Under the pieces are notes generated by a model. The model ran no database searches. It saw only the letters and a list, made by a program, of their open reading frames with translations, and was not told where the DNA came from. A stretch of DNA of 62,146 nucleotides, filler included. It is 10 parts of 10 records of this genome, joined end to end, with 100 filler letters (N's around TTAATTAATTAA, not from the genome) between each part and the next. Parts side by side here need not be neighbours in the genome. Positions count along the whole stretch, not along the records: positions 12,431 to 20,919 come from SRR15195285_1689; 9 more parts are not named here. One strand, given 5' to 3'. A program made the position numbers and the translations under genes. This document shows positions 4,062-58,296 of the stretch, piece after piece; positions within the stretch are counted from its first letter, which is position 1; every line of letters starts with the position of its first letter.

Positions 4062-4161
4062 NNNNNNNNNNNNNNNNNNNNNNNNNNNNNNNNNNNNNNN
4101 NNNNNTTAATTAATTAANNNNNNNNNNNNNNNNNNNNNNNNNNNNNNNNNNNNNNNNNNNN
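4062..4161. other. Artificial contig spacer
   Basis: N44-TTAATTAATTAA-N44, stops in all six frames. Confidence 0.97.
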
Positions 4162-4345: not shown

Positions 4346-4957
4346 GTGCCGCACACCCCCTACGGGTCCACTGGCTGGTTTGCGACCATTCGGGACGGTG
4401 AGGAGAGGCGTTGACGGCCGCGGGTCCCCCCCCCTCGCCGAGAGGTGCTGGAGGATGCGAGCGGCCAAGCTGGCGGCGGGGGAGTCGTGGGCGGGGCTGT
4501 CGACGGAGGAGGTGAGTAGTGCGGCGATGGGAGACGAGAGAGCGTCGGATCGTGTCCACGCCTGCATTGCGGGGCAGCGCCAGCTCCTTCGAAAGCGTCG
4601 CTGACAGTCAGTGTGCGTGCGCGCTACCGCAGAAACGGAAGCTGATCGCTGATGTGGAGAGGGAGAGGAACACCCCGCGGAAATCGGTATGCGTTGCCTC
4701 ACTCCCGCGTGCTCCACGGTCTCGCCTTGCCCTCCCGCCCCCTTCCCTTCCCATATCCCGTACGCCTACGTAGCATCTCACAGAATCGACTTCCATCGCT
4801 CTCGCCGTCGCTCATTCTGCCCCGGCTGGTGCTGTCTCAGCCTCGCTCGCCGCTGAGGCGCACAGCCCTGCACGTGGCTCAGGCGCGTAGCTTTTCGCCC
4901 CAAAGTGATGCGGCACGCAACGATCGTCGCCGTGCGAACGGGAGCACCGCAACTGGC

Positions 4958-7900
4958 ATGGACCCGAATGTGCGTGGCGGTCGTGACGCTCCCGACGCTC
5001 GCCGCCGCACTGCATCGAGCGCAAGCGCGATGGCAGACGTCCTTTCTGCGCCAGAGTCCGTGCCGCCACCGCAGCCAGCCACAACGGTCCCGGCGCACCC
5101 TAAGGCACAGGCGTCACCACCGGCACCGCTGCCAGCCGCACTGGCACAGTCACGCGCGCTAGATGAAGCGTCGCAGCATTCCGGAGTAGCGTCTGGCGCG
5201 GTGCCCGGGCGACCCCGGTTAATGTTCAATACTGCGGCCGATGATTCCGCTATCAAGGTGTCGGCGAGCAGCAGCGATGAAGAGCAAGAGGACCAGGACG
5301 GCATCGCTGCTTCGGAATCCGAATCCGATGCTGATTGTCCGCCGGAGCCCGAGCCTGAACCAGTCCGATCAGCCGTGAATCGGGTACTCCCTCCGAGAGA
5401 TCGTATTGCATCTACAATCCCTGCCCGGCAGATGTCGCTTGACTTCAGTGAAGCGGTCAGGGCTAGTGAAAAGGCGCCATTATTGATGGCAAGTGACACC
5501 CAAAATTACGAGCTCGAAGGTGGGGACCACATAATCAAAAAGCGGAGCTGGAGGATCGAACATGGCAGCGTAGCTTTCACGGATCTGGAAAGCAATCCCC
5601 GAGAGGTGTTGGACTTCAGCTCCGCGGCGTCGTTCGAGCACGCCCAACAGGGCAAGTTTTTGCGCATCGCAGGCGATGAGACGCTTGCCAAGCCTTTCAC
5701 TGCCCTGAAGCAACTCGAGGAACGTCAAGAGCGGGTGGAGCAGCTACTCGAGATTGTTCGAATTTTTGAGCAGGAATGGGGAATGTCGATGCCTCCGATG
5801 ATCTTGGGAGTGACTGGCAATGCAGCACCATTTCAGCTACGGCCTCAGTACGGAGACATTTTTGACAAGGCATTGCTCAAGGCGACCCAGGCCACTAACG
5901 CATGGGTTATTACCGGAGGCACGGACAGTGGCGTCATGAGATTGGTCGGGAACGCAATGAAGACAGCCAGTACACCTGTCGTGGGTGTTGCTTCGTGGGG
6001 AGTCATCAAGGGCCGTGGCAAGCTTGCACGGCCGAGCACAGCGAAACTAGCAGAGCGGATCACGACTAAGATCAAGTCGAAGCGGATCTTGCAAGCGGAC
6101 GAGCGTCCGAAAGATATAGGAACAGAGAAGGTTGTGTTGGACAACTTCAGAGTGTCAAATGCCGCGAGGTGGGCGGATCCAGACGAGTGTCCGAGCCACG
6201 TGGGCAAGCGCATTTGCTTTCTACGCGACCGTGGGCGCGCTAGCACGTTAGAGCAGCTTGAGTTGATCGATCCGGATACCCGACGCCCCGACATCAAGCG
6301 CCAGTATCCAGAGTTCTCAACTGGCCGGCTGGGTCGTGGCTTTCTCGGGCGGTGGGGACCGAACCAAGCAATTGACACAATCGTCACTCGACGGGTCGAG
6401 CAAGACGTCGGCTCTGACGGTGGTGCGACACTGCAGCTGCAAGTGCGTTTGACCTACAGGGAAGAGGACGATATGTGGGCGATCCCTGGCAAGTTCACTA
6501 CGAACGAGCAACTAAAGTGCCTGTCCAGTCTACCCACTGGCTCTCGACTGTTTGGACAGTCTGACGGAGGGCACGAGAATCACGGCGCGGACGACGTCGT
6601 GCGATACGCGGTGCGTGAGGTCTTTGAGCTCGAGGCCGTCTCAGACGGCAAGGCGCATGATTACAAAGATGTTTTTGAAGAAGTGTTCAAACGCAGTGAG
6701 CAGACGTTGATTTATCGCGGTTATTCTGATGATCCGCGGAACACTGACGAGGCGTGGGTCGAAACTTCAGTTTGGCATGTGCACGCTCCGCAGGAGCTTG
6801 GACACCAGCTTGACCATGATGACAGACACGGTGTGAAGTGGATGAACATGAAAGTCACTGGCAGCCGATTGGAGTTCTATGACGACGAGGGCGAATCTGT
6901 CGAACTCTTCGCGAGTCATGCAGAGTTTCTCGAAATGGCAGTATTCGGCCACATCCAGGGCAGCCCTGACATGCCGTTCGCGTACGATGGCAAGCCATCA
7001 CTAGAGCCAGGCAACAAGACTGAGATGGTAAACCTCAACCCGAACCATTCACACTACATCTGTGTCGACACTGGTCAAGACGGGCAGTTTGGGAAAGAGG
7101 TAGCCATCAGAAGCGAGCTTGAAACCTTCATCTCCATCTACGATTACGATCACTTGAGGAACGTAGCGGTCGCTGAGCTCACGGAACACTTCACCCGGAC
7201 AGTTGACATGGCGCAGATAATCGTCGATGGGGAGCGGGTAGAATCGGGAGTCACCTCAGGTGAGATCAGGTTGGACGCAGTAGAGACAGAGATCAAGATT
7301 GAACGCATCGCCAGCGATGGTGATACAAGACGCACTTACACGGTCAACGTTAGCAAAACTAAACAGCAGGCTCCAGCTAGAAAGGAGAACAGTGCAGCGC
7401 GAGACAGAGCTTTGTCGAACTTCCATGCTGTCGCAAACTTTGCTGCTCCGGGCTTCAAACTTAATCGCAGCCAAGATGCTGGATCGACAATTTTCACACC
7501 AGACGGTTCAGATATTGCTAGTGTAGATGTTTCTGAAGGATTCCTTTCACCCGACTTTGATCCTGATGTGTTTGAGTACCGCTTGGAAATCGCACCCACC
7601 GCTGAGGTCATCAAGGTGACACCTTACTTAACATCTGGACGGAAGCAACCTGTTCAAGTTACGGTGCCTGTTGTGACGGTGGCATACGGCGGCGGTGCGG
7701 TGACTCTGCGCACGCTGGAAGCGATCAGTGAAGACAGTGCGATCGTGGTCATTCAAGGGTCCGAGCGAGCAGCCCAGTTTCTGGAAGACTGGATTGCGCA
7801 TGAAGCAGAGAAGGATGAAATCGACCAAAAGGACTTGAAGCAGCGGGAACAAATCGATAAGCGCCAAAAAGATCACGCCGAGAAAAGTATCCGGTCGGAC

Positions 7901-10672
7901 TTTGCGAAAACGCAGAGACCGCCCACAACGTACGAGCATGTCTATCGACAGCCTCAAAAACCCCGGTGGTGGGATGTTCAAGTCTATGTCGACGCACTAG
8001 GCAAGCTTGGCCAGCATAAGCACCTAAACTTCTTTCGACTGGATCAGACATTTTCCATAGACTCGAGCAAGGAACAGCGCAACAATCCGCTGCTCCCGAC
8101 ACTGGTGACGAGCATCCTCGAGTCTGAACGAGTGAAAAACGGGGTTAAGCTTCCGCTGGCCATTCGGTTGAACGACAAGAACGGCGTACAGAAGCTGTGC
8201 GTGTCCGAAGGCATCGCTTTAAGATCAGACTTAGCTCAAGAGGTCACGATGGACTCAAGGATGCTGATCTACGCTGCTTACCATGACCAAGGAAAGGCCG
8301 TTGGTGCGCTCCTCGACGCTGGCTTTGACCAGTCGGCGCTTGATGCGCTGATTGCTCTAGAGATTCAGCGAGCCCTTGACATGCCCAGGTTGGTCAAGGA
8401 GGATGAGCCGCCATCTTGGTGGGCGAGACAGCAAATTGCAGCAGGGCTAGATGCCGCTCGCGTGGAGTCACGCTGGAAGAAGGTGGACTCACACTCCAGG
8501 CCAGGGCAAGCAGGAAAAGAGGATATCTACCGGTCTCTAACATGGGATATGATGCCTTCTCTCCCCGGCTGGACGTTCAAGGTCACATTCGTCGCTCCCA
8601 ACGTCCTTGCGAGCCAAGACATGGAGGAGGATGGAGCTGAGAGTCATCCCCCGCCGTATCAGCAAGGGATGATACTGCGGCAAACGAGCTGCCGCATCAA
8701 GGACTACCACTGGCGTGGGAATGATGTTGTGTACGAACGGGATTTCTTGATACTGTCACCAGATGAGCTCAGCGGCCAAAAATTCAAGGCGACGGACGAC
8801 AGCGTGGCAAACGAGGTGGACAGTGACGGCTTCAGCTGTTCTTTTCAACAGGGTGGATACGACTGGCGTGCGACCATTGTTCCACTTTGGAAAGACAATC
8901 TGACTGCTTGGCTTCCACTCGATTCCGAGTGCAAATTTCGCTTTTCTGCTCGACTGGATGGTCGCCTAGAGAAGCAGCTTGTGACTGAGTCGTTGTTTCA
9001 CTGGCTGCGTGACGACTCTGTTGAACACAACCGTCCGCAGAAGGAATGGAAACCCGGCGAATGGGAGTGTGACGAGTCATGTCCGCACCCCAATTTTGAA
9101 ATGCATGAGTTGCATCGGCTCTTCTGGGCCATTAGGAGCAATCGCCCAAAGCTTGCCGAGGTGCTCATGCACCGATGTCACCGCCCAATTGTTGCTGGTC
9201 TGTTCGCCGCGTATGTATACAAGAAGCAGGCCTTGCCTCGCAATTTCGTCCCAGACACTCAGTTCAAAGAGCGTCACATGCCGCATAATATGCGGCGCTC
9301 ATGCGAGCTGTACGCGTGTGACATCCTCGACAATGCCGACTTCCAGGGTTCTTACGCTGCGTTTGATGAGTTCGTTTATTGGGGAAAGGATGAAGAGGAC
9401 GACGAGCTGTTCAAACGGTTCAAATCGCTGCGGAAGGATCGCCGAGACAACGCCAATATTCGGGCTGCGTTGAAGCTCATGCATCAGGACGCTAACACTG
9501 AACCAACCAACATTGATCTCGCGCTGATGGCGAACTCCAAAGTTTTCATGGGCCAGCCAGGTGTGACGCAGTTTCTCACCAAGCTGTGGAGACTGCCCTC
9601 AAACAACGGGAAGTACACAGACGCGCTGTTCTCGCGCTTTTCCGCTCCGCGCGTCAAGTGCTACGTGTCCATCATCGGCTACCTGATCTTCCTCGGGATC
9701 TACGTGTCCTTCGTGCTATCAATGCCCTCGAAATCTGTAGAATTGTCGCTTACTTTCAACGAGGGTGTCTTCTGGTTCTGGGAGCTGGCCTCCGCGATGT
9801 CGGAGATCGGTGAGGCCTTTGGAGATTTCGACTCGTTTCATGGCTACCTGCGGGGGTCAGGCAACAAGCTAGATTTCCTGATCATGGTCATGTTTGGTTT
9901 GGCGTTTGGCGCACGACTGTGGTTGGCGGGCGCAACAGAGAACGTAGTTCCCATGACTGTGATGCTCGGGATCCTCTGTTTGAACCTCATCCTGTGCTTC
10001 ATCCGCTTGTTGATGATGCTGTCGATCAAGAAATCTATTGGGGTGATGATGATCATCACGAAGCTCATCATTAGCAGAGACGTGTTTCCCTTCCTCTGCT
10101 TTGCAACAATCATCATAGGCGCGTTTGAATTCGCTGCCTTCTACTTTTCCTGGTTGCGAGATGTCGAACACGTTGGTGGGTTCTTTTTCGACATGTTCAC
10201 GTCGTTGGGTGACTTCCAGCAGCTAAAAGTCGATTCCTACGACCTACCGTGGTGGGACAGGGAGCAAACAGGCTGGGCGATGTCCTCAGTATTCTTCGAG
10301 TTCATCTTTTTCGTGATCACTATGGTCATTCTGATGAACCTCCTTATTGCGATGATGACAGACACGTACTCATCCATTGCCAAGCAGGCCAACGCTACCT
10401 ACCAGATGGGGTTCGCGCGGCTTGTGAACGAGTACTACGAAGCTTGTGTCTTCCCTGTTCCCCTGAGCATCATTGAGAGAGCAGTGGACGCCTACATGGG
10501 CGACACAGAAGTGTCCACGATGGCCACAACTGGCATGCATTGGGGCAGGCACTACACGTGGCCCGCCTCGCAGCTGCAGTTTCGGCTGGATATGGCGCGC
10601 AGGAAGGTGCAGACCAAGAGAGAGACTGCAAAGGTGCTCAAAAAGGTTAAAGGAAAAGCCAACAAGATGTAG
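4958..10672 (+). CDS. TRPM-like cation channel (about 1900 aa, apparently intronless) with SLOG/MHR1-2 domain, nested NUDT9-like Nudix domain and cadherin-like module; start at ATG 4958 or 5030
   Basis: SLOG: ILGVTGNA, AWVITGGTDSGVMRLVG, VGVASWGVI, LNPNHSHYICVD, VPVVTVAYGGG, IVVIQGSERAA. NUDT9-like: GRGFLGRWGPNQAIDTIVTRR, WAIPG, YRGYSDDPRNTDEAWVET, LFASH. MHR4: LFWAIRSNRPKLA, IDLALMANSKVF..Q.LTKLW. FSAPRVK precedes S1, then 6 TM helices, S6 LMNLLIAMMTDTY. Confidence 0.92.
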   Translation: MDPNVRGGRDAPDARRRTASSASAMADVLSAPESVPPPQPATTVPAHPKAQASPPAPLPAALAQSRALDEASQHSGVASGAVPGRPRLMFNTAADDSAIKVSASSSDEEQEDQDGIAASESESDADCPPEPEPEPVRSAVNRVLPPRDRIASTIPARQMSLDFSEAVRASEKAPLLMASDTQNYELEGGDHIIKKRSWRIEHGSVAFTDLESNPREVLDFSSAASFEHAQQGKFLRIAGDETLAKPFTALKQLEERQERVEQLLEIVRIFEQEWGMSMPPMILGVTGNAAPFQLRPQYGDIFDKALLKATQATNAWVITGGTDSGVMRLVGNAMKTASTPVVGVASWGVIKGRGKLARPSTAKLAERITTKIKSKRILQADERPKDIGTEKVVLDNFRVSNAARWADPDECPSHVGKRICFLRDRGRASTLEQLELIDPDTRRPDIKRQYPEFSTGRLGRGFLGRWGPNQAIDTIVTRRVEQDVGSDGGATLQLQVRLTYREEDDMWAIPGKFTTNEQLKCLSSLPTGSRLFGQSDGGHENHGADDVVRYAVREVFELEAVSDGKAHDYKDVFEEVFKRSEQTLIYRGYSDDPRNTDEAWVETSVWHVHAPQELGHQLDHDDRHGVKWMNMKVTGSRLEFYDDEGESVELFASHAEFLEMAVFGHIQGSPDMPFAYDGKPSLEPGNKTEMVNLNPNHSHYICVDTGQDGQFGKEVAIRSELETFISIYDYDHLRNVAVAELTEHFTRTVDMAQIIVDGERVESGVTSGEIRLDAVETEIKIERIASDGDTRRTYTVNVSKTKQQAPARKENSAARDRALSNFHAVANFAAPGFKLNRSQDAGSTIFTPDGSDIASVDVSEGFLSPDFDPDVFEYRLEIAPTAEVIKVTPYLTSGRKQPVQVTVPVVTVAYGGGAVTLRTLEAISEDSAIVVIQGSERAAQFLEDWIAHEAEKDEIDQKDLKQREQIDKRQKDHAEKSIRSDFAKTQRPPTTYEHVYRQPQKPRWWDVQVYVDALGKLGQHKHLNFFRLDQTFSIDSSKEQRNNPLLPTLVTSILESERVKNGVKLPLAIRLNDKNGVQKLCVSEGIALRSDLAQEVTMDSRMLIYAAYHDQGKAVGALLDAGFDQSALDALIALEIQRALDMPRLVKEDEPPSWWARQQIAAGLDAARVESRWKKVDSHSRPGQAGKEDIYRSLTWDMMPSLPGWTFKVTFVAPNVLASQDMEEDGAESHPPPYQQGMILRQTSCRIKDYHWRGNDVVYERDFLILSPDELSGQKFKATDDSVANEVDSDGFSCSFQQGGYDWRATIVPLWKDNLTAWLPLDSECKFRFSARLDGRLEKQLVTESLFHWLRDDSVEHNRPQKEWKPGEWECDESCPHPNFEMHELHRLFWAIRSNRPKLAEVLMHRCHRPIVAGLFAAYVYKKQALPRNFVPDTQFKERHMPHNMRRSCELYACDILDNADFQGSYAAFDEFVYWGKDEEDDELFKRFKSLRKDRRDNANIRAALKLMHQDANTEPTNIDLALMANSKVFMGQPGVTQFLTKLWRLPSNNGKYTDALFSRFSAPRVKCYVSIIGYLIFLGIYVSFVLSMPSKSVELSLTFNEGVFWFWELASAMSEIGEAFGDFDSFHGYLRGSGNKLDFLIMVMFGLAFGARLWLAGATENVVPMTVMLGILCLNLILCFIRLLMMLSIKKSIGVMMIITKLIISRDVFPFLCFATIIIGAFEFAAFYFSWLRDVEHVGGFFFDMFTSLGDFQQLKVDSYDLPWWDREQTGWAMSSVFFEFIFFVITMVILMNLLIAMMTDTYSSIAKQANATYQMGFARLVNEYYEACVFPVPLSIIERAVDAYMGDTEVSTMATTGMHWGRHYTWPASQLQFRLDMARRKVQTKRETAKVLKKVKGKANKM

Positions 10673-12330: not shown

Positions 12331-12430
12331 NNNNNNNNNNNNNNNNNNNNNNNNNNNNNNNNNNNNNNNNNNNNTTAATTAATTAANNNNNNNNNNNNNN
12401 NNNNNNNNNNNNNNNNNNNNNNNNNNNNNN
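12331..12430. other. Artificial contig spacer
   Basis: N44-TTAATTAATTAA-N44. Confidence 0.97.
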
Positions 12431-12464
12431 AGAGAGAGAGAGAGAGAGAGAGAGAGTGAGTGAG
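12431..12464. repeat. (AG)n microsatellite at contig edge
   Basis: agagag... x13 then tgagtgag. Confidence 0.9.
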
Positions 12465-13102
12465 TATACGGTGGGTGATTGCCAAGTTTTCTACTGCTCA
12501 TGGCCAACATCTTGACAGCGATCGATCGATCGACTCAGTTTCAGCAAGGTTCTTGGAGCGTAGTGAGCAGTTTGGCAATGGCTCCTCCGGCACTGGGGCG
12601 CAAAGGCTGAAGCGGCAAGGGCGTCAGTGGTCTATATAGCAGCTCCTACGTACTTTCCGACGTTGCCGGTCGCGCCGAGGAGGAGCAGCCTGAGCTCCGG
12701 CCGCTCTGCATTCTCTCGCATCGCATCCAGTGCAGCCCCCGTCTCCACATCCGACAGCATCCCCACTCGAGCGTACCCCGCCGACGCTTCGAGAGTCGCC
12801 GGAGTACAGGGTCAGGGTACACCCTGAGCTACACGCCGCGCGCGTCCTCCTGTATTAGCTCCTTACTAGCATTTAGCTAGTACGACACAGGGAACCAGCA
12901 CAAAACAGGGGCGCCGCACGCGGTGGCGGATGTGTATATGCACCTGCCTGCGGGGTAGATCTAGCCTGCCTGCACGCGTGCGCGCCGCGTGCGTGCTCGC
13001 GCCGGCGCGGCCGCGCGCGTACGACGTACTAGAGTACACTGTACAATGTATGATGCACTGTACACTGTACCTGGTACTGGCATCAGTAGCACAGAGAGAT
13101 CG

Positions 13103-15514
13103 ATGCTCGTGCTCACGGCAGCGGCGCTGCTTGGCTCAGCAGCTTCGGGCTCCTCTGCTGCCGCACGCAGCAAGCCCCACATCCTGCACGTCATCGTGGA
13201 TGATTTTGGCTGGGCCAATACGAATTACCACCGGGTGCGTCCATCGTGCATGGTCTCGCAGCCCAGCACCCACTTCGTCCGCCCGGCGAGCGAGGCGAAC
13301 CACCGCATTCGTTTTCCCCAGCTGTTTGGAGGACGCTACATAATCGATGTTGTTTGTTGTTCGTGTGCGCATCGACCTAATCATGTAGGCGGAGCCGACG
13401 CCGGAAGTGGTGACGCCACGCATGGACGCGCTTGTGAACGAGGGAGTCATGCTGATGCGGCACTACGTCCACCCCGAATGCACGCCGACACGCGTCAGCT
13501 TTCAGACCGGCCGCATCCCAATGCACAGCGGCCAAGGCGGGCTCTGCAGCCCCGGCGACGAGTCGTGTGGTGCGCCGTACGACATGGGCACCATCGCCGA
13601 GAAGATGGTCGAGGGCGGCATGCAGGCGCACTTCGTGGGCAAGTGGGATGTTGGCATGGCAACACCGACGCACGTGCCACACGGCCGTGGCTACAACACG
13701 TCGCTCAACTACTTCGGGCATGGCAACTACCAGTGGGGGATGGTGGAGTGGGGAGCAGACAGGGCGAGCCGCTTGAGCGGCCACACTCCATCCGCAGACG
13801 GCGAGTTGATCAGAGATCTGTACGACACAAACCGTCCGGCTGCAGCGCAGGCGAATCGCTCGCGGGACGAGGGGATATATGAGGAGATGATCTTCCGCGA
13901 ACGGCTCTACTCCATCGTTATGCATCACGAACCGACGGTTCCGCTCTTCCTAACTTATTGCGCACGCATCGCGCACTACCCGATCCAGGCACCCGCGGAG
14001 TACCAGCACCGCCCACACATTGCGAAGATAGACGTTCCACACCGGCTTGTATATCATGCGCAAGTCGAGTTCCTTGACGAGCAGCTTGGGAATCTCACAG
14101 ACATGTTTAAAGTCCGTGGTATGTGGGACAATACTCTGATGGTCCTGAGTAGTGATAACGGAGGCTACACTAAAAGCCTAGGGCCGTGCACCGACGGTAG
14201 CGACCCAGTGCGTGGCATCACATGCATGTCTGGTGAAGCTGGGGCGAACAATCACCCAATGCGCGGTGGAAAGTACAGCTTGTTCGAAGGTGGCATTCGC
14301 GCGAATTCTTTCGTCAGCGGGGGCTACCTGCCACAGGCTGTGCGCGGCACTGTGCTCCACGGTCTGCTTCACATATCGGACTGTGCGCTCATTCGCCATA
14401 GCCTGAAGAGTCGACTGGTATTATTCTGGGGTGTGATATGTCTTCTGAGGATTACTGGTATGCTACGCTTGCAGGGTGGGCGACCTACTGCAGCCTTCTC
14501 GGCGTGGATCCAACTGACACGAAGGCCACGAAGGCGTCGCGGTCTGTTCCACCAATCTCATCCCTCAACATGTGGCCGATGATCTCAGGTGAGAATTTGA
14601 CGTCTCCTCGTCAGGAGCTCTTCGTAACGGGTGACCTGCTGATACAAGGAGACTGGAAGCTAATTACTGGACGAGCGTCGTCGGCGTCGTGGCCTGGACC
14701 AACCTATCCAAACGCGACCTCGGTCAACAATACCCTCGACCGGTACACTGCAGATTGCTCCGCTGGGCCAGACTGGGCCCAAAATATTGCAGAAAGACTG
14801 GATGGCAGACCTGGCGCAGCAGGGCCATGTCTCTACAATGTCGGAAACTCAGGGCTCGGAGATTGGACTGAGCACCAAAATTTGGCGGCGGAGTACCCGG
14901 ATATCGTCAAAAAGATGATGGCGCGACTGGTTGAGCTTCGCCCAAGCATTTGGAGCAATCCGAATGGTTCAGTGGCTTACGACAAAGCGTGTCTCAACAC
15001 TAACTATGTCTGGTGGACTCTGTCTGGTGGATTTTGTAAGTAGAGCCGATATTGACCAACAGTGCTAATACTAGTCCTGCACATGATATAAATGCTGTGC
15101 ACCGTTGTCGTGTGGGCAGATGGACCATGGTGTGAAGTAGGGCCAGGGCCGACTCCACCCACACGGCCAGGGAATTTCACACCGACACCACTCTCAAATT
15201 GCACCTACATACCGGGAACATGGATCAACCCAGCGTCACAAGAGTATGTACAAGGTGTGGGCACCAAAGAGGCCTGCTGCAAGGCCTGTGGGCTCAGTTC
15301 GACTTGCGTCGCGGCCGTTCTAAAGTGTCCACTGCCACGTGGACCGTGCAAATGCAACTTGAAGCAGTGGAACGCCGAGAACTCCTTGCGGAGGGACGGG
15401 GGGGAGCATACACACACTGACATGGCGTGCTTGACTGGTCGGCAACACATTCCCGGTCCAGGACCGGACGATGTCGTTGATAACGAGGAAGCCTTGCTCA
15501 ACTGGTGGCCATGA
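13103..15514 (+). CDS. Secreted arylsulfatase (ARSB-like, S1 family) with C-terminal PAN/Apple-like module; 4 exons (13103-13234, 13389-14382, 14475-15035, 15120-15514)
   Basis: Signal peptide, KPHILHVIVDDFGW, formylglycine motif CTPTRVSFQTGR, VGKWDVG, SSDNGG, NHPMRGGKYSLFEGGIR, spliced HISDWWAT and GGFYGPWC; Pro linker, then CCKAC...CVA..C.LK. Confidence 0.92.
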
Positions 15515-16084
15515 ACCTAGCAACAAACAGAGTGATGGAGTCGGCTTGGTATATTATGCTTGCTGCATCTCGTGCTACAACCTACAATACAAGAAGCGTG
15601 TACGTGACGTCAAGCTGCTCGCATTGTCTGTCACCGGCGGCATGTGTCTCTCACGTGCACCCTGAAAATTACTGTAAAATGATATCAAGTACATGAGCAC
15701 TCATACAATGATTTCAGTCCATTTTTCCATGGCCATGAAGGTTCAGTCAGTATCTCACACGATGGCAGACGTGCTATTATGCCACCCACAGCACGCAAAT
15801 CTCACCTTACTAGTCCCTTCCTACAGCCCAAGCTCCACCTTAGTTAGTAACTGTCGGTACTTGATAACTCGGAGTACCTGATACAATTGAATTTTTCAAT
15901 TCCAAGCAGCAGGATCCTACGGTACTTTTTAAAATTGAAAAATAACTACGGTAGAGCGCGCCAGCGGCCGCGGGGGCGCGGACGGCGTGGAATGTGACGA
16001 CGGCAGGCTCCGGACCGTGAAACTTTTTTCCGGCACGCGCGCGTGACAGTCGATGGCACTCCAAAGAAAGCAATTCACGTGATT

Positions 16085-16849
16085 TCATTCAAGAATCACG
16101 TCAGCATGCTGCACTGGGTTCGTCAAGATGGAGTCTTCGAAAGCGGCGTAACAAAGGTTCATCTTGAAGCGAGCTAGCAAGTCAGCCTGCCGGAAGAAAA
16201 ACGGAGACGGCAGCGGGTGCTCGTTGGTGCCGCCACGTAGACCCTGCAACGTATATCCCCTCATGGTTACGTCGGGCCAGTCAGTAATGGTTACAGCCGG
16301 CGTCCGGTAGGTATCATGCTTGCTTGGGTCTGGGTTGGCCGTAGCGTTGATGAGCTGTGCAGCTGTGACAGTGGCGAAGAACACGGCGGAGCTGGTCGAG
16401 CCAAGACCTACCACGCCCGTTGCAGAGGTATCCAGCACGTAACCCTCGGGCTGATCGTTAAGGCTGATCAGCCTTGCACTGAGATTGCGTTCAGACGCGA
16501 GCTGTTCAAGGGTTGGTGTGACCTCAGGGTCACCGAATGCCAGGAACGAGGCCTTCGGCATAGGTGTGTTTGTTGCCAAGTCGATAATCGAAATGTTAAT
16601 GTGCAACGACTGCGACAGCTCCGACTGCAGCCGGGTCGCGGCATACGCGTCGCTCGCCACGCTCCCATTCACCACAATCACCCAGCTGCGCCCGTCGATG
16701 CGAAAGAAAGTCCCCTTGTCGTGGCACCGCTGCGGTGGCGGGAGCAGTCGCGACACGGCTAGAGGCACTGCCATGTTGAGGGGTTTGCCATGGCTGAATA
16801 GGATGTGACAAAGCGCAAGCAGCAGCCTTGCTCGTAACGCAACTGCCAT
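16085..16849 (-). CDS. Secreted GH20-like (beta-hexosaminidase domain 2 plus start of TIM barrel), apparently C-terminally truncated
   Basis: Signal peptide from ATG 16849; LLPPPQ, PEGYVL, VFFATVTAAQL, ITDWPDVTMRG, LLARFKMN; stop about 25 aa later. Confidence 0.7.
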   Translation of the reverse strand: MAVALRARLLLALCHILFSHGKPLNMAVPLAVSRLLPPPQRCHDKGTFFRIDGRSWVIVVNGSVASDAYAATRLQSELSQSLHINISIIDLATNTPMPKASFLAFGDPEVTPTLEQLASERNLSARLISLNDQPEGYVLDTSATGVVGLGSTSSAVFFATVTAAQLINATANPDPSKHDTYRTPAVTITDWPDVTMRGYTLQGLRGGTNEHPLPSPFFFRQADLLARFKMNLCYAAFEDSILTNPVQHADVILE

Positions 16850-17040
16850 GCGTAGACCGTCGGTTCTATCTTGAGCCTCTGCAGAGCGCAACAGTGACAA
16901 ACCCCTGCGCGCTCTGATGGTATACATGTATATATAGTAATACAGCGCGGCGTACGCGCGCGCCTCGAGGGCCGGCGCGCGCGTGCATGGGATTGATCGC
17001 CGGCGCGGACTCGCCTCGAGCGGCAACGAACGTGGTGAAG
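16850..17040. promoter_or_regulatory. Putative bidirectional promoter between the GH20-like and PhyH genes
   Basis: About 190 bp between divergent ATGs, containing tatacatgtatatatagta next to gcgcgcgc tracts. Confidence 0.5.
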
Positions 17041-18497
17041 ATGGGCCGCTTGGTTCTCGCGCGCACACTGGCCCATGTGAGACTTGAGCCGGAGAGCGAT
17101 CTGCCTTCTCCACTCGCACACTCTCTGGTGGCCGAGGCGGACGACATCTTCCCGCGATCGCATGGGCCAGAGCGCGATGTTGACCCAGAGGCGGCACGGC
17201 AGATGGGTCTAAGCAAACGAGAAATCGCTTTCTTCAAGGAATTCGGTTATATCATCAAGCGCGGCCTCATTCCGGCCGAGGATCTCAGGTCCTGGGTTGA
17301 CAATTTCTGGGACGAGATAGTGCCGCCTGGCGTCGATCGCTCCGACCCGGCGACGTGGATTGACCCTGCCCACACCGAGGGCTGGGGGCCAAGCGCGGAA
17401 ACCATTGCGGAGAGTGAGCGGATGGTCAACATTATGGGCAGGCCCCCGAACCGTGCGTATCCCGTGTCATACGGCGACGCAAACATCAACTGGACGCAGA
17501 TTGGTGGCCAGGCGGATTTCGTCGATGTCACCTGCGCCCACCCAAACGTACTGCGCACGGTTCAAGCCCTTATCGGTGGCCCTGTAAAGCGCCCACACCG
17601 CAATCGTGGCACGTACGTCCACTTCCCCAGGCAGGAGGTGGGACGCCTCGGTCCACACAACGATACGATGCCTGCGGAGCTCTTTGGTATGGTCTACCTT
17701 TCGGACGTCCCACCGCGGTCAGGAGGGACCACGATTTGGCCGACGTCGCCACAACGTCTGTGGTCGTGCCTCGAATCTGAGCATCGTTGCGGCTTCAATC
17801 CAAACGAGAAGTACTCGTCAGAGTTCGGAGCCATCCTGGACGAGGTCAAGCCTACGGAGTTCGTGGGGGCTACAGGGGACGTCATCTTCTTGTGAGGGCA
17901 CTGCCTTCTTCACAGTGGAACCTCCATGATCCGTGTTTGATTGCTTTCTCACAGTGTGCTTCGTGCCGTAGACACCCAGCGATGATACACTCGGCTGGCA
18001 TTAACTCTGCGATTCACGGCAGCGGGACACTACGTATTGCGACAGTCATGGAATGGCAGCGTGCACGGCCGCCTGGCAAACGTACGCTCTGGTGGACCCT
18101 CAACGATTCCGCACGAGCGGTGTCGCGAGGTCCACACGATCGGCTTGAGTACAACACAAGGGCGCGACCTGACGGGTTCTTTGCACCCGCAATGGATGGA
18201 CGCGACCCAATTGATGAGGCTGAGGATGAAGTGCAGCTCGTTTGGCACCACGATGCCGCCGAGTACTGGCCGTACGAACCGCGCCCAAGCGATATGTGGG
18301 ACCGCTGGGCGTTTGACCAAGCACCGGATGCGACTCCAGACGTTGTTGTCGAGGAGCCTTGGTGGGAGAGGCATAACATCGAGCCACCCGCTACGATCTT
18401 CAAGGTGAAAGACATCGCAAAGCTAGATGAGAATGGTGTGTGGCAAATCATCGATCGTGCTGGCGCGTTGGCGGAGGCCGTAGAGTCAGTAGCATGA
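17041..18497 (+). CDS. Phytanoyl-CoA dioxygenase-family (PhyH) Fe(II)/2OG dioxygenase; 2 exons (17041-17891, 17972-18497)
   Basis: EIAFFKEFGYII, HxD motif PHND, YLSDV..RSGGTTIWP, GDVIFL|HPAMIHSAGIN, distal R in LRIA. Confidence 0.88.
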
Positions 18498-18855
18498 GGC
18501 TCGAAGTAGGCTCGGCATTGTTCCTACCTGCGTGCCAATGCGATGTCATCCGGATGCGTGTAAAGTTTACCCACATTTTCATCTTACCCAATGCATTCGG
18601 AGACGGCAGCATCTCCTAGCGAATACTGTGGACCCAAGCAGTCAAAGTGAAGCAGAACACCAAAGAATCCGCAACACACCTGATTATCAATTAGCAAACT
18701 GAGCGGGCGCGCACACATTAGCGCGATCTGGAGTACATTTTTGATTTGTTTTGTCAGCGGGGCATTTCTATGAAGTGTGTAGTATCGATACACGTTTCCA
18801 ACCACACTGCACCCGGGCAGCTGCTAGGTTTGCTCTTTCACTTTTGCTCCTGTCA

Positions 18856-20794
18856 TCAGGGCAGTTTGATCGCGTCGAACACCTGGGCCGGTGGCTTTCC
18901 AACCACCTGCAGCGCGGTGTACAGATCTTTCGCCGGGTGCTTGCCGAAGCCAGTGATCATGTCGCCTAGCGATTTCTGGCCGCAGCGCGCTGCATGGATT
19001 GTGTCGGACGTCGCACCGCTAGCGATGCAGGCTCCACATGCTGATCCGCCTAGCAGAAAGCACTGGTTCCCAGGATTCTCGCAGAAATGGTCATAGATAT
19101 AGTAGTCAAGGCCGAGGCCTCCAACTGTCGTGGCAAGCCAGACCACAAGGAAGTAGTACTGACTGTCGCCAAGCCAGGCTCCTGCTCCCCACGGGCCAGT
19201 GCCGGCCCGCCTTACCACTGTCCCGAACGCGGCACTGATCGCATGGTTGTATGCAGCTGGGCTATATGCTGCCATCCATAGGCCAACGTCTTCGTCGATG
19301 TGGCGCCGCTGGAAATCGCAGCCATTGTTGAGCAGCTGGTCCGGCGTGCAAGCTGCCGGCTTGTGGCAGTCGATGCAGTAGCTGGCGACAGCGACGAAGG
19401 ACGACGGCACGATACTCACTTTCTTACTGCCGAGACTAATGGTCGCCCGGGAACTGTCTAAGATGGCAGAATTTAGCCAGTTAGTTGGCTGGATAGAGCC
19501 ACAGTCGGCTTGCTTGTTCGAGGTCTCTCCTGTGATGTTGTTAACAATCCGACGCGCGCCCAACAGAGTAAACGGCACGGGCAGCATCGGATTGCCCGCC
19601 TGAGTCGTAAAGAACGCGAAGGCTAGCACTTCGCTGTAGAATTGGACCAGCGATTCGTCCTGGGTGAACGCGATGTCACACAGCTGCGCGCCGCCGCCGA
19701 CGTCGCCTCCAGCGATATCGGTAAGGGCTTGGAACGGCGTTCCGCCGGTCATGAAGTCGGATACGTTGCATAGGGCCCCAAGCCCGGTCGAGCCTTTGCC
19801 ACAGATGACGGGAGGTTCAAGCGTTGTGTTGCTGAGGCTTTGTTTCCACAAAACGGGAGCTGATGTGGGTGTTGCACCGATGAGCATGGTCCCATCATGC
19901 AGCGCACCGTCACTAGAGAGCTCTACATAATTGACCGCAAGTAAAGAGAGGAGCGAGAGTAGGAAGGTGCTTTTGCCAGCCTTGGAGCACCTCTTCAGCG
20001 CCGCGCTCAGGCCCTCCGCCGTGCCGTTTACTGTGTTGCCCATCAGACTATTCGCAACGATAAAGGCTAGCTGTCGCTGAGAAATGGCGACGACCTTGTT
20101 GTCGGACGGTGCCTTCAAGTCAACGTACGGCAGTCTATTACCCATGCCGAAAGGGTCGCTAGCGAGCAGTGCCTCCATGAACCCCGCAATCTTTGATAAA
20201 GTGATGACTTGCCCCTTAATTGCAGGCGGATGGGTGAGCCAGCGCGATGCAACTGACTTGAATGTACTGTCTGGCACGCCTGGTAGTGAGCTGAGTGTAC
20301 CCACTTCGTGCGAGAGCTGCGTGGGGGAGATACGCCACTGCAGCGTGGCAAAGCTGTCACAGTCATCAGCACCAGAGCACATGAAGAAAGGCCAGCCGCC
20401 CGGCGGGGCGGGTGGCAGCGGCGGTGGTGCTGGCCCGGGTCCGGGTCCCGGGGGTGCGGGTGGCCCTGGCGGGGGCCTGAAGCAGCGCGGAAAAGGTGTC
20501 ATTCGAGTGTGCAAAACAGTCCACGGCATCATTTGTGATTTTGTATACTCACGCCGGGCCCGTGTTGCAGTCACAGGCAGCGCCACCGCAAGCGCAGCAA
20601 GCCACAGCGCCAGGGCACTGCTGTGGCGGCTTCGTCGTGGGATTGCAGCAGACTTTGCTGCCAGGGCCACACGCGCGGCACGTGCCACCTGCAGCCGTCA
20701 AGCCGCTGCTGCTGCTGCTGCTGCTTCTGGTGGTGAGCACCCGCTGCAGGAGTGAGAGCACCAGGAGGCAGCACAGCCCCAGTGCCAGCCGCAT
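18856..20794 (-). CDS. Secreted Cys-rich PARG-like (poly-ADP-ribose glycohydrolase macrodomain-fold) protein; 2 exons (20794-20553, 20476-18856)
   Basis: Signal peptide MRLALGLCCLLVLSLL. A GTGAGT..TTCAG 76-bp intron joins the Cys-rich exon in frame to a Pro linker. PARG-like motifs in order: ISQRQLAFIVANSL, TDIAGGDVGGG-x9-QDE..FYSE, LLGAR, TGPWGAGAWLGD..LVVWLA. Confidence 0.78.
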
Positions 20795-20919
20795 GTGGAG
20801 GATGGCCGTGCAGGGCGTGGGTAGGTGGGTGTGGGTACGTAGGTCGGAGCCTAGCTCGGCGCTTACATCACGCCGCGGGCGGCGTCACCTAGCGATACTG
20901 GCCGACGTGATACAGCGGT

Positions 20920-21019
20920 NNNNNNNNNNNNNNNNNNNNNNNNNNNNNNNNNNNNNNNNNNNNTTAATTAATTAANNNNNNNNNNNNNNNNNNNNNNNNN
21001 NNNNNNNNNNNNNNNNNNN
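20920..21019. other. Artificial contig spacer
   Basis: N44-TTAATTAATTAA-N44. Confidence 0.97.
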
Positions 21020-23425
21020 AGCAGCAGCAGCAGCAGCAGCCGCAGCAGAAGCAGAAGCAGGACCAGCACGAAGATAATGCCCGATCGCCGCGTAAGAAAG
21101 CTCGGCGGGTGTCATCTCGGTTGCCGCCGCAGCCATTCCGGCTCCTGATGACAAAAGGTATTTGCGCAAAGGCGAACACTGGTTGCCCCCGGCTGCGATC
21201 TTTGCTCAACCTGGACGGCATGGTTGATGCGGTTTTGAGCAACTATATGTTTGACTTTCCTTGGCTCCGGCGTGAGTGCCCGTACTTGGAAAAGCTGCGG
21301 CGCGTTACAGTCATACACGACGCGAGAGACTCAGAAAAAATGGAAGCCATACCTCCGAATGCGGTCCTCCACGCTCCTCCTCTCCCAATCCCATGGGGCA
21401 CAATGCATTCCAAGTTCGCGCTGATATTTTCTGCAACGCAGCTGCGTCTGATGATCACGACAGCAAACTACATCTCCATCGACTGGGAAAACAAAACCCA
21501 GGCAGTATGGAACCAGGATTTTCCGCTAAAAAGTGCAAGCGGCTGCGATGACAGAAGGAGTTCGGGCGAGTTTGAAGACTCCTTGGTGGAGTACCTCGAG
21601 GCGGTTGGCGGGTTCGACGTGGCTGCGCTGCGGAAGTTCGATTTTAGTTCTGCTCGTGCGCGGCTCGTGGCATCAGTCCCAGGCTATCATAGTGGCGGTG
21701 CGATGAACAAGTGGGGCCACATGAGATTAAGAAGACTGCTCCAAGATGTTTCGGTAGAACCGCGGTTTGACTCGGTGGTTTCACAGTTCAGTTCGATGGG
21801 CGCCGTCCCAGAGAAGTGGATCAGACAGAACTGGCTACCGTCAGTGAGCAGCTGCCGTGCAACTGGAGCTGCAGATCGACCTGTGCCGAAGCTTCAGCTT
21901 GTCATTCCAACAGAGACCGAGGTTTGCAACTCTGTTGAAGGCTGGGCGGCTGGTCAAGCAATCCCGATTAAAAAAAACAAGCATCAACCGTATGATAATC
22001 GCGACGCACCTGCATAATTATCTCTAGAGGATACCTTTGCCTCTCCTACGGTAATTGCTCACTGTTGGTTGTATTTGCAGATATATGCGTGAGTGGAAGC
22101 AGCCCACCGCGTTCACAGACCAAGGGTTTGCTGTGAATTATGGGCAAACCGTCGATCTCTACCATAGATGGAGCTCAAAGAGCAGCGTAGCACTCGTGCG
22201 TCACGGTGTGCCTGCATTGTTTAAGCGCAACTTGTGTTTCACAGTTGCTCGGTCTTGCAGGATAAAAATGGATGTACGAGTATGGATGATGGTTGCTCTG
22301 GACGCGCCAGGGCTATGCCACACATCAAATCCTTTGCACGTTACTGCAGCGATTCGACCGGTATGCCCCAACATGCTCTCTAATGATCCGCAGCAACGTA
22401 GGGAATCTGAAAGCCTTTTTTGGACCGAGCAGAACAACAGCCAACCGAACTCGCTTGGGTACTGGTCACTTCGCACAACTTCGGGCCTTCTCCGTGGGGC
22501 GATCTGCAAAAAGCTCAGACACAGCTGATGATTCGCTCCTACGAACTCGGAGTTCTTGTTACGCCGGAGACGGAGCTTGCAGCGCGAGCGGCGGTGGGTG
22601 CTGGAAATGTGATGTCAGTGCGGCTACTACAAGGTGTTGCTGGTCCTCCCGCCCCTGCGTCTGCTGGTCCAGATCACGACGATGCAGGACAGGTGCGCGC
22701 TCCTCACTTAACCAGCTGGAGTTGAAGCAGCCTGACATCTCGCTGTGTTCGACACTGCACTACAGGCGATCAGTTGGGTTCCACTGCCATACAAGCTTCC
22801 CCCAGCCCCATACTGCGACAAGGATATTCCCTGGGCGCATGACAGCGAACAACATCAACCAGACTGCCTTGGCAACTTCTTTATGGCTGGACAAACGTTG
22901 ACGATGCACGGCCCAGTACGTGATCGAGCTGCTGGTGGCACCAGTGCTGTTGCTAAGCGAGATTCGGGCGGATCTTACCCTAACCCTAAAGTGCACGAGC
23001 AGCAGTATAGACAGCAGCAGCTGCAACGTCAGCATCAGCAAAAACTCCAGCAGCAACAGAGTAGCCAAGCTGGGGCCTCAAACCAACACGTCAGCCAGGA
23101 CGATGCAGCCGGTAGCGTCAAAAGCATCGCTGCCCAATGGAGTTGGAAAGCGGGTGCTGGATGGCAAAAGTACGACAGTAAGACAAGTGCTACCCTCGAG
23201 CAGTGCCACGGCCGATTTTTTGCCTGCAAGCTCAGCGGCTCAGACCCTGGGGCTTTCGTTACAGTAGAGGTGGGTGGAGGAAGGCACGTCAACTTGGCAA
23301 CAATGCAGCAGGTCGTCACCGCTACCCCTGGGCGAACGCGGCATGTCCGTCGGCGTGGCCCAGCTCCAAGCGCGTATGGTGCGCGTGCCAATAATCCGGT
23401 CCACTCCCGAGACACTTGGGTATAA
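21020..23425 (+). CDS. TDP1: Tyrosyl-DNA phosphodiesterase 1 (5'-truncated, about 5 exons) with C-terminal WWE domain
   Basis: [57 protein letters not shown], second catalytic motif [32 protein letters not shown]...[14 protein letters not shown]. Confidence 0.93.
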
Positions 23426-25319: not shown

Positions 25320-25419
25320 NNNNNNNNNNNNNNNNNNNNNNNNNNNNNNNNNNNNNNNNNNNNTTAATTAATTAANNNNNNNNNNNNNNNNNNNNNNNNN
25401 NNNNNNNNNNNNNNNNNNN
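25320..25419. other. Artificial contig spacer
   Basis: N44-TTAATTAATTAA-N44. Confidence 0.97.
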
Positions 25420-28469: not shown

Positions 28470-28569
28470 NNNNNNNNNNNNNNNNNNNNNNNNNNNNNNN
28501 NNNNNNNNNNNNNTTAATTAATTAANNNNNNNNNNNNNNNNNNNNNNNNNNNNNNNNNNNNNNNNNNNN
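28470..28569. other. Artificial contig spacer
   Basis: N44-TTAATTAATTAA-N44. Confidence 0.97.
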
Positions 28570-34990: not shown

Positions 34991-35090
34991 NNNNNNNNNN
35001 NNNNNNNNNNNNNNNNNNNNNNNNNNNNNNNNNNTTAATTAATTAANNNNNNNNNNNNNNNNNNNNNNNNNNNNNNNNNNNNNNNNNNNN
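34991..35090. other. Artificial contig spacer
   Basis: N44-TTAATTAATTAA-N44. Confidence 0.97.
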
Positions 35091-47548: not shown

Positions 47549-47648
47549 NNNNNNNNNNNNNNNNNNNNNNNNNNNNNNNNNNNNNNNNNNNNTTAATTAA
47601 TTAANNNNNNNNNNNNNNNNNNNNNNNNNNNNNNNNNNNNNNNNNNNN
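47549..47648. other. Artificial contig spacer
   Basis: N44-TTAATTAATTAA-N44. Confidence 0.97.
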
Positions 47649-51650: not shown

Positions 51651-51750
51651 NNNNNNNNNNNNNNNNNNNNNNNNNNNNNNNNNNNNNNNNNNNNTTAATT
51701 AATTAANNNNNNNNNNNNNNNNNNNNNNNNNNNNNNNNNNNNNNNNNNNN
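51651..51750. other. Artificial contig spacer
   Basis: N44-TTAATTAATTAA-N44. Confidence 0.97.
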
Positions 51751-56700: not shown

Positions 56701-58296
56701 TTCAATTGCGGACTCGGCGCCTTCATCTTCGAACGGCAAGGCACTTCGTCGGACAGCCGGCTCCTCTGCGGGCAAGGTAAGATCATCCTCGTCACCTTCT
56801 GCGAGTGGATTGACCATCTCAGTTTCGGCTTCTCTGTGTGCCTCTCTGGCTGCGAGAGCTGCTTCCTGTGCAGCAGCCTTTTCGGCTGCAGCCAACATCT
56901 CGCCTTCCTCCGCGACGTACGACTCCAGGATGATGACCAGCAAGAGGTTCATAAGGACAAGCGCCCCTGCGAGAATCCAGGCCACGAAAAAAGACATGGC
57001 CCACTTATTTCCGACGCGAACAGTGTCGACCATGACTGAGTTCCAGGAGTCGTATGTCATGATTTGGAACGTCGTAAACATCGCGACCTCAAAGGAGTCG
57101 AAGTTCCACCTCGGCACATACTCTTCCTCCATATAGAGCCCGCCGAACATCTGCATCCCAAGAATGGTGAAGATGAACACGAACATCAAGAGCAGCAGCA
57201 AGATGTAGACGAGATCCCCCAACGTTGCTATCATTACGGTGAGGACAGTGCGCAGCGGCTCTAGCCAAGATATGATCTTCAACACCCGCAGCACGCGGAA
57301 CAGCCTGAAAATCCGGAACACCTTGAACGCGCGCACACCAACACCTGCCCATCCGACGAACTCTAGTACTCCAGCCACCACAACCACAACATCGAAGAGC
57401 GTGAAAAGGTCCGTCCAAAATTCCTTTGCTGTTTTGCCCATCTGCTTGATCACAAGCTCGCCAAGGAAAACGAAGGTGCAGACGTGATTTGCGATCTCCA
57501 GGTGATGCAGCCTTTCCGGTGTGATGTTATGCTCATCCATAGCCAGCGCAATGATGTTTAAGATTATCCACACCGCGAAGAACAAGTTGAATGCCGGATG
57601 CGTTAGGACCCTTTCTCTCACCCACTTGCGATAATCACCCAGCTTCACCAGCTCCTGGTACTCCACGCCTCTACTCACGTAGTCACCCTCAATCACTCTG
57701 CTCGCTGTGAACTCGACGGCATTCCCGACTAAGCATTCTTCTTCGACAATTCGTCGCAAGTAGATCCGCTTCAAACTTTTGGTCACACCGTTGTCCAAGG
57801 CCACTGTGAGCTTTTGCTTATCGCCCAGCTTCCCATCCTGCACAGTACCTTGCTGATTGTTGAACTCCATCGCCTCTCCTCGGCCTTTGTACACAACCAC
57901 TCGCTCGCCCTGCTCCAGCACGCCGCTGTCGTCGTGCATCACAACTCTTTTCTGTGTCATCCGTTCGTTCCAGATGGTGATGTATGACTTTCCCTCAGCT
58001 AGCATTTCTCCGTTGTCGTGCTGCGTTACCTTCGGCTGGTTGTAAACCACCAGCCTGCGCTCGGTATTTCCCCATGCAAACCCCTCGAAAATGTCGTCGT
58101 ATTTTTGGATGGCAGCCTCGATTCTTGAGTGATCCTGAATATGCATGACGTCTGACACGACACGGATGACGTAGGACATTGTGCTTTCCTTAGTGTGCTG
58201 CAGCTCCTGCAGAAACGCGAGAACAGAGGCGGGTCAGGCCAAAACAGTTCTGGGCGACGGTTGTGAAAGCAAGGATGCGCGGGACATACGGCGAGT
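53712..58296 (-). CDS. Four-domain voltage-gated Ca2+/Na+ channel alpha subunit (domains II-IV present; domain I lost in the gap)
   Basis: S4 segments RAFKVFRIFRLFRVLRVLK, KSLRLLRAFRALRML, RIVRIARIVGRVGR; P-loops FQIMTYDSW, FEISSQNDW, FGVATADGF; LLNLFVGVI..LTKDQMQW; EF-like WQSFDKDATG; 3' exons spliced to a stop at 53712-53714. Confidence 0.92.

Follow-up and report, generated by a model that had tools for sequence, protein, structure and literature searches.

The window analysed here, a composite stretch of DNA of 62,146 nucleotides rather than a single molecule, contains at the end of one of its pieces (12431–20919) a gene of an uncultured marine protist, which encodes a protein with the fold of poly(ADP-ribose) glycohydrolase (PARG) behind a predicted signal peptide. 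This PARG-like gene consists of two exons and lies on the minus strand, as do all of its features described below, 125 nt from the piece edge. The 5′ untranslated region (UTR) comprises at least 37 nt (20795–20831; an RNA-run contig, X16 record 11, spans 20682–20831), and an in-frame stop codon is located 30 codons 5′ of the ATG (open reading frame, ORF, 20549–20884). The coding part of exon 1 (20553–20794), 80 codons plus two bases, covers the start codon, the signal peptide, a poly-Ser run and a Cys-rich module. Its product (P0002) begins with MRLALGLCCLLVLSLLQRVL, and no Pfam family matched it at E ≤ 1. The predicted signal-peptide-like N-terminus spans approximately residues 1–22 (20729–20794) and is composed of Arg2, a hydrophobic stretch (L3–L16) and polar QRVLTT. 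The sequence MRLALGLCCLLVLSLLQRVLTT stands before a run of seven Ser residues (20705–20725, codons (AGC)7), after which 10 Cys residues follow; these make up the Cys-rich module (20567–20680), with 10 Cys in 38 residues (C39–C76). In total, 12 Cys are found among the 80 residues of the exon 1 product.

A GT-AG intron of 76 nt in phase 2 (20477–20552, gtgagt...ttcag) separates the two exons. The junction codon, checked by hand, is an Ala codon with gc from exon 1 and g from exon 2, and reading continues in frame through exon 2 (coding part 18856–20476, stop codon TGA at 18858–18856). The translation of exon 2 (P0001, 539 amino acids) aligns end to end with its relatives at a query coverage of 94–99%, and thus no additional intron is needed in this exon. 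P0001 starts with a Pro/Gly-rich linker of 27 residues (A PPPGPPAPPGPGPGPAPPPLPPAPPGG; 20395–20476), in which residues 1–5 and 10–20 have a pLDDT of <50 in the model described below. The remaining 512 residues (28–539; 18859–20394) form the PARG-like catalytic domain, as delineated with AlphaFold2, VIA and Foldseek, which is made up of a helical accessory part, a macrodomain core and a Cys-rich C-terminal part. The last of these (18859–19092) contains DHFCENPGNQC and has five Cys residues, at positions 465, 472, 480, 483 and 498, which are kept in 49–54 of the 54 aligned family members, with a pLDDT mostly >80.

The gene stretch was matched in at least 19 public marine runs from 15 studies, with six RNA libraries among the matches listed. 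Transcript evidence was obtained from contigs of four runs aligned to the gene; the repeat at 20696–20739 was skipped in the alignment, and gaps in RNA coverage (e.g., 19714–19941 in X7 and X15) carry no evidential weight. Contigs from other samples showed small insertions that look like population variants: 7 nt behind 18805 in the 3′ UTR (X7 and X1), an in-frame 3 nt behind 19447 in the coding sequence (X7), and 2 nt behind 20830 in the 5′ UTR (X1).

An initial annotation, made from the bare sequence, had placed an intron at 20552–20477 between a signal-peptide exon and a PARG-like exon. One RNA contig (X16 record 10; 151 nt, depth 2) covers 20552–20694 and has a loose end, GGCGGGGG, which is exactly the plus strand of 20468–20475, base 20476 being identical to base 20552. 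In this contig the intron is therefore absent and the exons meet exactly as predicted, and the signal-peptide exon is very probably joined to the PARG-like exon. It had also been anticipated that ORF callers would miss exon 1. The closest match in the database (P0003, 95% identical) begins at an internal Met, in agreement with this expectation.

The PARG fold proposed in the same annotation was recovered by structural comparison. An AlphaFold2 model of P0001, built without templates and with an alignment of 54 family members as the only input, had a pLDDT of 89.7 and a pTM of 0.91. Foldseek gave 42 matches in PDB at E ≤ 0.001, and all of those listed were canonical PARGs (Tetrahymena, human, mouse, rat and Drosophila), the best being 4epp at 3.2e-11; bacterial PARGs appeared at 2e-3 and weaker. 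With VIA, Tetrahymena PARG (4epq, chain residues 14–449) was aligned to residues 34–539 of the model with Z 22.6, 374 of 439 residues aligned, an rmsd of 3.7 and 11% identity. Human, mouse and rat PARGs followed at Z 20.2–21.1 and fly PARG at Z 19.5, with lower values for the PARGs of Thermomonospora curvata (12.4–12.7) and Deinococcus (9.8–11.3) and for plain macrodomains (approximately 8.3). The bacterial PARGs align only to model residues ~166–476 or 134–512, while the VIA matches to canonical PARGs extend along almost the entire chain; the protein therefore has the full canonical architecture, with the accessory domain included. Among the 30 nearest clusters in ESM Atlas, 26 were within the PARG set (score 0.92).

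A sequence-level link to canonical PARG is provided by the relative P0136, which matches the window protein at E 5.5e-44, Drosophila PARG at E 1.9e-12 and mammalian PARGs at approximately 1e-4. When P0136 was compared with PDB sequences, 15 of the 25 matches listed at E ≤ 10 were PARGs, and the remaining 10 had E ≥ 0.8. Three colinear stretches are paired between P0136 and fly PARG: msqkqvayllanafl with lsqqqiscllanafl, vdiagstlggg..mqdes with vdfankylggg..vqeei, and vgtgpwgagvwwgds with vatgnwgcgafggds. The fly and mouse PARG chains do contain the canonical motifs cited in the initial annotation (sqqqisCllanafl, vdfankylggg..vqee and tgnwgcgafggd). A second search with P0136, aimed at canonical PARG sequences, returned 22 family members and nothing else, and our residue mapping to canonical PARG is therefore confined to the three aligned motifs. 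In the family itself, Pfam PF05028 (PARG_cat_C) is matched by 44 of the 54 members at E ≤ 0.01 (best 2.6e-10), and P0001 has a single PF05028 match, at residues 424–461 (E 0.0018, 18.4 bits). Given the Z values of 22.6 and approximately 21 to canonical PARGs, the Foldseek E value of 3e-11 and the link from P0136 to the fly enzyme, we regard the PARG fold of the window protein as practically certain.

All four motifs pointed out in the initial annotation are present, within 2 nt of the places given there; the catalytic loop, which had been put at 19654–19720, actually occupies 19722–19654. From the N-terminal side, the first motif is ISQRQLAFIVANSL (P0001 residues 131–144; 20044–20085), the counterpart of SQxQIAxLLANAF, for which P0136 provides the alignment with the fly and mouse enzymes and in which Q135, A137 and N142 are conserved in 53, 51 and 48 of the 54 sequences, respectively. 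The second is the catalytic loop TDIAGGDVGGGAQLCDIAFTQDE, or TDIAGGDVGGG-x9-QDE (residues 252–274; 19654–19722). In this loop, D253, G260, G261, C266 and Q272 are invariant (54/54), E274 is found in 53/54, and the three Gly residues of GGG are kept in 54, 54 and 49 of 54. Position 273 is D in 52/54 and E in 2/54, and five of 78 further family members read QEES. The third motif, the strand and loop LLGARR....TG (residues 304–316; 19528–19566), pairs with canonical LGAERY/TGTEQY, and its G306, R308 and G316 are invariant. The fourth is TGPWGAGAWLGD..LVVWLA (residues 426–448; 19200–19132). Its diphosphate-binding loop TGPWGAGAWLGD (19165–19200) falls within the PF05028 match, and the TGPWGAGAW sequence is near-invariant; W434, found in 51/54, occupies a position that is F/Y in canonical PARG. 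Since the four motifs are the most conserved columns of the 54-sequence alignment, they are not chance matches. The alignment of the colinear stretches of P0136 and fly PARG places QDE on QEE, so that the second Glu is kept, as the initial annotation had supposed. The conservation pattern indicates that strong constraint acts on the catalytic Glu and on each of the two nucleotide-binding loops.

In canonical PARG, according to the available part of PMC7050489, a macrodomain core is combined with a mainly helical accessory domain, the Asn before GGGx{6,8}QEE contacts the 3''-OH (the residue is Asp in microbial PARGs), the diphosphate loop has a G[A,V][F,Y] patch, and Glu756 is catalytic. The position of this Asn corresponds to G256 in the window protein, where DIAG-G stands for DFAN-x, and the column is Gly in 50/54 and Ala in 4/54. 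Judged from the alignment, the distal-ribose pocket is altered throughout the family. The initial annotation had mentioned neither the Asn-to-Gly and F/Y-to-W changes nor the membership of the gene in a large family.

The family is large. A word-indexed search returned 114 proteins at E ≤ 0.001, and an exhaustive search returned 130 representatives at the same threshold, 100 of them at ≤1e-10 and 57 at ≤1e-30. The organisms named for these relatives are all dinoflagellates (Polarella, Prorocentrum, Symbiodinium and Durusdinium), and one partial relative is labelled as coming from a proteobacterial metagenome-assembled genome. In a quick-method tree of 61 chosen rows trimmed to the domain, the window protein formed a clade with P0003, P0063 and P0024 (support 100). 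The placement of this clade among the named dinoflagellate sequences depends on open forks, and neither vertical descent nor transfer can thus be claimed.

The size and divergence of the family bear on the simplest explanation of the gene, namely that it is the ordinary canonical PARG orthologue of the organism and has evolved fast. The fold match spans the whole canonical catalytic domain, and some relatives are named poly(ADP-ribose) glycohydrolase in UniRef, as would be expected of such an orthologue. However, identity to the solved PARGs is 11–15%, and several named dinoflagellate proteins are found per species, e.g., five in Prorocentrum. We scanned 37 distant members out of the 130 representatives and found no canonical-like PARG among them: PF05028 was matched at E ≤ 0.001 in 11 of the 37, and the cut-off was reached in four (P0136, 43.2 bits; P0117, 29.0; P0129 and P0179, 27.3 each). 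Together with the sub-threshold PF05028 score of the window protein, its signal peptide, the anchors of its relatives and the Cys pattern, these results make a fast-evolving orthologue extremely improbable.

The secretory routing suggested in the initial annotation was examined by hydrophobicity, a 17-residue segment with a mean Kyte-Doolittle (KD) value of ≥2.0 upstream of the domain being taken as the mark of a signal peptide or an anchor. In the window protein, the best such segment is LALGLCCLLVLSLLQRV (residues 3–19, mean KD 2.14). All three motifs are present in 78 relatives, and 41 of these begin with M and extend for 20 or more amino acids upstream of the domain. A hydrophobic segment was found in 28 of these 41, as compared with 39 of 820 shuffled controls and 3 of 41 catalytic parts. 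It is internal and signal-anchor-like in 27 of the 28 and N-terminal in one. In 17 of the 27, K+R residues are in excess on the N-terminal side of the segment, in one they are fewer there, and in nine the two flanks are equal; this excess predicts an N-in topology, with the catalytic domain outside. By eye, P0111, P0114, P0124, P0137 and P0138 have signal-peptide-like starts. P0137 is laid out like the window protein, with a signal peptide, a Cys-rich piece and a Pro-rich linker; a comparison of the Cys-rich N-modules of the two proteins gave no significant similarity (best E 0.25). The domain of the window protein has 16 Cys residues, 10 of which are conserved in at least 49 of the 54 sequences.

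Additional domains in the relatives are consistent with this routing. C-terminal ricin-B lectin repeats are found in P0059, P0070 and P0093, a somatomedin B domain in P0157, and, at sub-threshold scores, a PAN domain in P0117 (22 vs a cut-off of 27 bits) and a carboxypeptidase-regulatory-like domain in P0145; all of these extracellular-type domains lie on the catalytic-domain side of the membrane in the predicted topology. A WWE domain, a poly(ADP-ribose)-binding module, is present in P0009 (142–205) and P0019. It stands N-terminal of the predicted anchor (~238–254 in P0009) and would therefore lie across the membrane from the PARG-like domain. The WWE domain ties the family to poly(ADP-ribose) (PAR) biology, although a reader and a hydrolase would not be expected to face different compartments. 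The predicted signal peptide on its spliced exon, the anchors and signal peptides of the relatives, the conserved Cys residues and the partner domains make an extracytoplasmic location of the window protein quite likely.

Based on these features, the explanation we favour, with moderate confidence, is that the window protein belongs to a third PARG-like branch, acts outside the cytosol, is stabilised by disulfides and probably still cleaves an ADP-ribose-type glycosidic bond with Glu274. The protein would enter the secretory pathway via a cleavable signal peptide and would consist of a Cys-rich module, a Pro-rich linker and a catalytic domain stabilised by disulfides. This third branch would stand beside the canonical and microbial PARGs, with its domain in the endomembrane lumen or outside the cell. 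An ADP-ribose-type ligand may be bound by the TGPWGAGAW diphosphate loop and the GGG loop, and Glu274, the counterpart of human Glu756, may serve as acid/base in the cleavage of an O-glycosidic ribose bond, with Asp273 presumably in place of the first Glu. Because the distal-ribose pocket is remodelled (Asn to Gly, the x9 spacer and Phe/Tyr to Trp), the substrate may be PAR or a related ADP-ribose conjugate. Catalytic activity of the window protein is predicted somewhat more readily than its absence, and PAR itself is a rather doubtful candidate for the natural substrate. Gene structure, fold, motif correspondence and family features have been observed directly, while location, activity and substrate are predictions. 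The uses put forward in the initial annotation, namely digestion of PAR from prey, reversal of toxin action or a function as another glycosidase, are conjectures.

Several observations weigh against this explanation. First, the direct sequence evidence is faint: the window protein is below the PF05028 gathering score (18.4 vs 26.3 bits), phmmer found no match to it in PDB at E ≤ 1, the profile of 54 family sequences had no match in PDB, and a profile of 22 family sequences reached PDB PARG chains only at E 0.9–1.9. Second, support for the splice is thin, consisting of the one 151-nt, depth-2 contig with 8 loose letters and one ambiguous letter, and a contig from another RNA library (X7 record 18) spans 20209–20695 without a gap, that is, unspliced. 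This contig would suit a gene in which the signal-peptide exon lies outside the mature mRNA and translation starts at the internal Met (MCSGADDC...), giving a divergent PARG of the cytosol or nucleus, and P0003 was called from that very Met. However, RNA libraries such as X7 can contain DNA, and the unspliced contig may be DNA carry-over or pre-mRNA, while X16 record 10 has the exact junction. A start at the internal Met would also drop a family-consensus Trp four residues upstream of it and would accord poorly with the anchors and signal peptides of the relatives and with 16 mostly conserved Cys. We therefore consider a cytosolic or nuclear product very unlikely.

Third, 13 of the 41 full-length-looking relatives have no hydrophobic segment at KD ≥ 2.0, although these include P0113 and P0114, whose hydrophobic N-terminal starts are slightly below the threshold. 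Two relatives carry domains that are usual in the cytosol, namely an inserted C2 domain in P0038 and a DnaJ domain in P0086, the latter without a hydrophobic segment; they may be true cytosolic forms or gene-model artefacts.

Fourth, the canonical 3''-OH-contacting Asn is replaced by Gly, the x9 spacer is outside x{6,8}, and GAW departs from G[A,V][F,Y], so that a changed or lost activity is possible. If activity has been lost, the protein would be a non-catalytic PARG-fold module, i.e., a secreted or surface reader or receptor for ADP-ribose-like ligands. Macrodomains do include readers without hydrolase activity, as described in the available part of PMC7050489, and the architectures with PAN, somatomedin B and ricin B are of an adhesion type. 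A pure binder, however, would not need Q-D/E-E, which is kept in 53–54 of 54 sequences with the equivalent of the catalytic Glu, and a non-catalytic role is accordingly given a low probability.

If activity has been changed instead, the PARG fold may have been repurposed, with a secreted or lumenal protein that cleaves another glycosidic substrate, such as a surface or prey glycan or a nucleotide-sugar-like polymer, and not ADP-ribose. The replaced Asn, the longer loop and the Trp are all consistent with this possibility, as are the ricin-B lectin repeats of three relatives and the fact that extracytoplasmic PAR is not known from protists, our literature search having found nothing on it. On the other hand, macrodomains use the diphosphate loop, here TGPWG.G, and the GGG loop to bind the ADP part, and the family shows almost no variation in either; two relatives also have the WWE domain on the same polypeptide. 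Repurposing is thus an improbable alternative, albeit one with appreciable weight, and we retain hydrolysis of an ADP-ribose-type bond as the favoured function.

The nearest known system is canonical eukaryotic PARG (PF20811 PARG_cat_N plus PF05028 PARG_cat_C; 4epp/4epq/4l2h and human 4b1h). It has the same architecture as the window protein over 374–393 residues (Z 20–22.6) and shares with it the colinear motifs SQxQ.A..(L/V)AN, D(F/I)A...GGG...Q(E/D)E and TG.WG.G..GD; the counterpart of human Glu756 is kept in the window protein family. In contrast, identity is 11–15%, the window protein falls below the Pfam cut-off, and it has Gly for Asn, x9 rather than x6–8, QDE rather than QEE, and GAW rather than G[A,V][F,Y]. 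The 16 Cys residues, the Cys-rich C-terminal part, and a signal peptide or anchor in a protein group otherwise nuclear or cytosolic are further differences. Microbial PARGs (DUF2263; T. curvata 3sig and Deinococcus radiodurans 5zdc) share the macrodomain core and a GGG...QEE-type loop with the window protein over ~210–224 residues (Z 11–12.7). They have no accessory domain according to the available part of PMC7050489, whereas the window protein has one and matches canonical PARG far better (Z 22 vs 12.7). Human MACROD2 (6y4y) and the macrodomains of Getah virus (6qzu) and SARS-CoV-2 (6z6i) have only the macrodomain core in common with it, at Z ~8.2–8.4, a level common for unrelated models; macrodomains of the MacroD and viral types have neither the accessory domain nor the QEE-type loop.

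PAR turnover is regarded as nuclear, cytosolic and mitochondrial. Extracellular processing of ADP-ribose has a precedent in ENPP1, a pyrophosphatase whose fold and chemistry are unrelated to those of the window protein. ENPP1 was reported to process protein ADP-ribosylation in vitro (PMC5030157, available part). PARG-like enzymes have been divided into only two subtypes, canonical and microbial, in reviews both of 2020 (Rack et al., PMC7050489, available part) and of 2026 (PMC13720257). Our literature searches found no paper on PARG or ADP-ribose glycohydrolase in dinoflagellates or Symbiodinium, with subscription journals and bioRxiv supplements outside the search, and none on a secreted, signal-peptide-bearing PARG macrodomain family as judged by title or abstract start. 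A search for an extracellular PARG macrodomain in protists yielded only an unrelated Legionella paper, and the best 20 of 35 papers on "PARG-like" included none on protists by title. Some relatives already carry automatic PARG names in UniRef, and the fold assignment itself is therefore not new; the novelty lies in the probable location, in the arrangement of Cys residues, in the remodelled pocket and in how large the family is.

The presence of at least 130 clusters with the full PARG fold, the catalytic Glu, conserved Cys, anchors or signal peptides, and lectin-type partners suggests ADP-ribose-type chemistry in an unexpected compartment. The family can also serve as a natural experiment on the active site of PARG, in which Gly has replaced Asn, Trp has replaced Phe and the loop has been lengthened. 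It is abundant in dinoflagellates, which are ecologically important; the window gene itself occurs in marine metagenomes and metatranscriptomes of the 15 studies. More tentatively, and with the balance rather against it, marine alveolate-like protists may have a third PARG-like class that works outside the cytosol, whether on the cell surface, in secreted material or within endomembrane lumina. If so, an extracytoplasmic pool of poly- or mono-ADP-ribose, or of a related ribosyl polymer, would have gone unrecognised; it might come from prey, from dissolved organic matter or from surface proteins of the organism itself, and the WWE-bearing forms might couple cytosolic PAR sensing to lumenal hydrolysis.

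The piece that carries the PARG-like gene also contains a sulfatase fragment (13389–14582, plus strand) and a fragment of a GH20 hexosaminidase (domain 2; 16085–17233, minus strand). Sulfatases and GH20 hexosaminidases are usually lysosomal or secreted in eukaryotes. The ten pieces of the window are joined by nine artificial linkers of the form N44-TTAATTAATTAA-N44, at 4062–4161, 12331–12430, 20920–21019, 25320–25419, 28470–28569, 34991–35090, 47549–47648, 51651–51750 and 58297–58396, and gene neighbourhood across them is therefore not physical. The piece next to that of the PARG-like gene has an ORF for a tyrosyl-DNA phosphodiesterase (Tdp1; 21040–22017, plus strand, E 2.4e-56) and, after it, an ORF that encodes a WWE domain (22736–23425, plus strand, E 2.7e-10). 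The two ORFs may be one gene linking Tdp1 to PAR recognition; as genomic context of the PARG-like gene, the Tdp1 and WWE genes beyond 21019 were rejected because an artificial linker lies between. Elsewhere in the window, an open frame of 2008 codons (4646–10672, plus strand) encodes a TRPM-type SLOG domain (LSDAT_euk, E 1.2e-39) and a cadherin-like beta sandwich. An open frame of 1335 codons (54226–58233, minus strand) encodes a multi-repeat ion-transport channel (Ion_trans, E 4e-146). The EukProt protein P0218 matches part of this channel with 100% identity, and environmental relatives of the channel were found at 82–93%.

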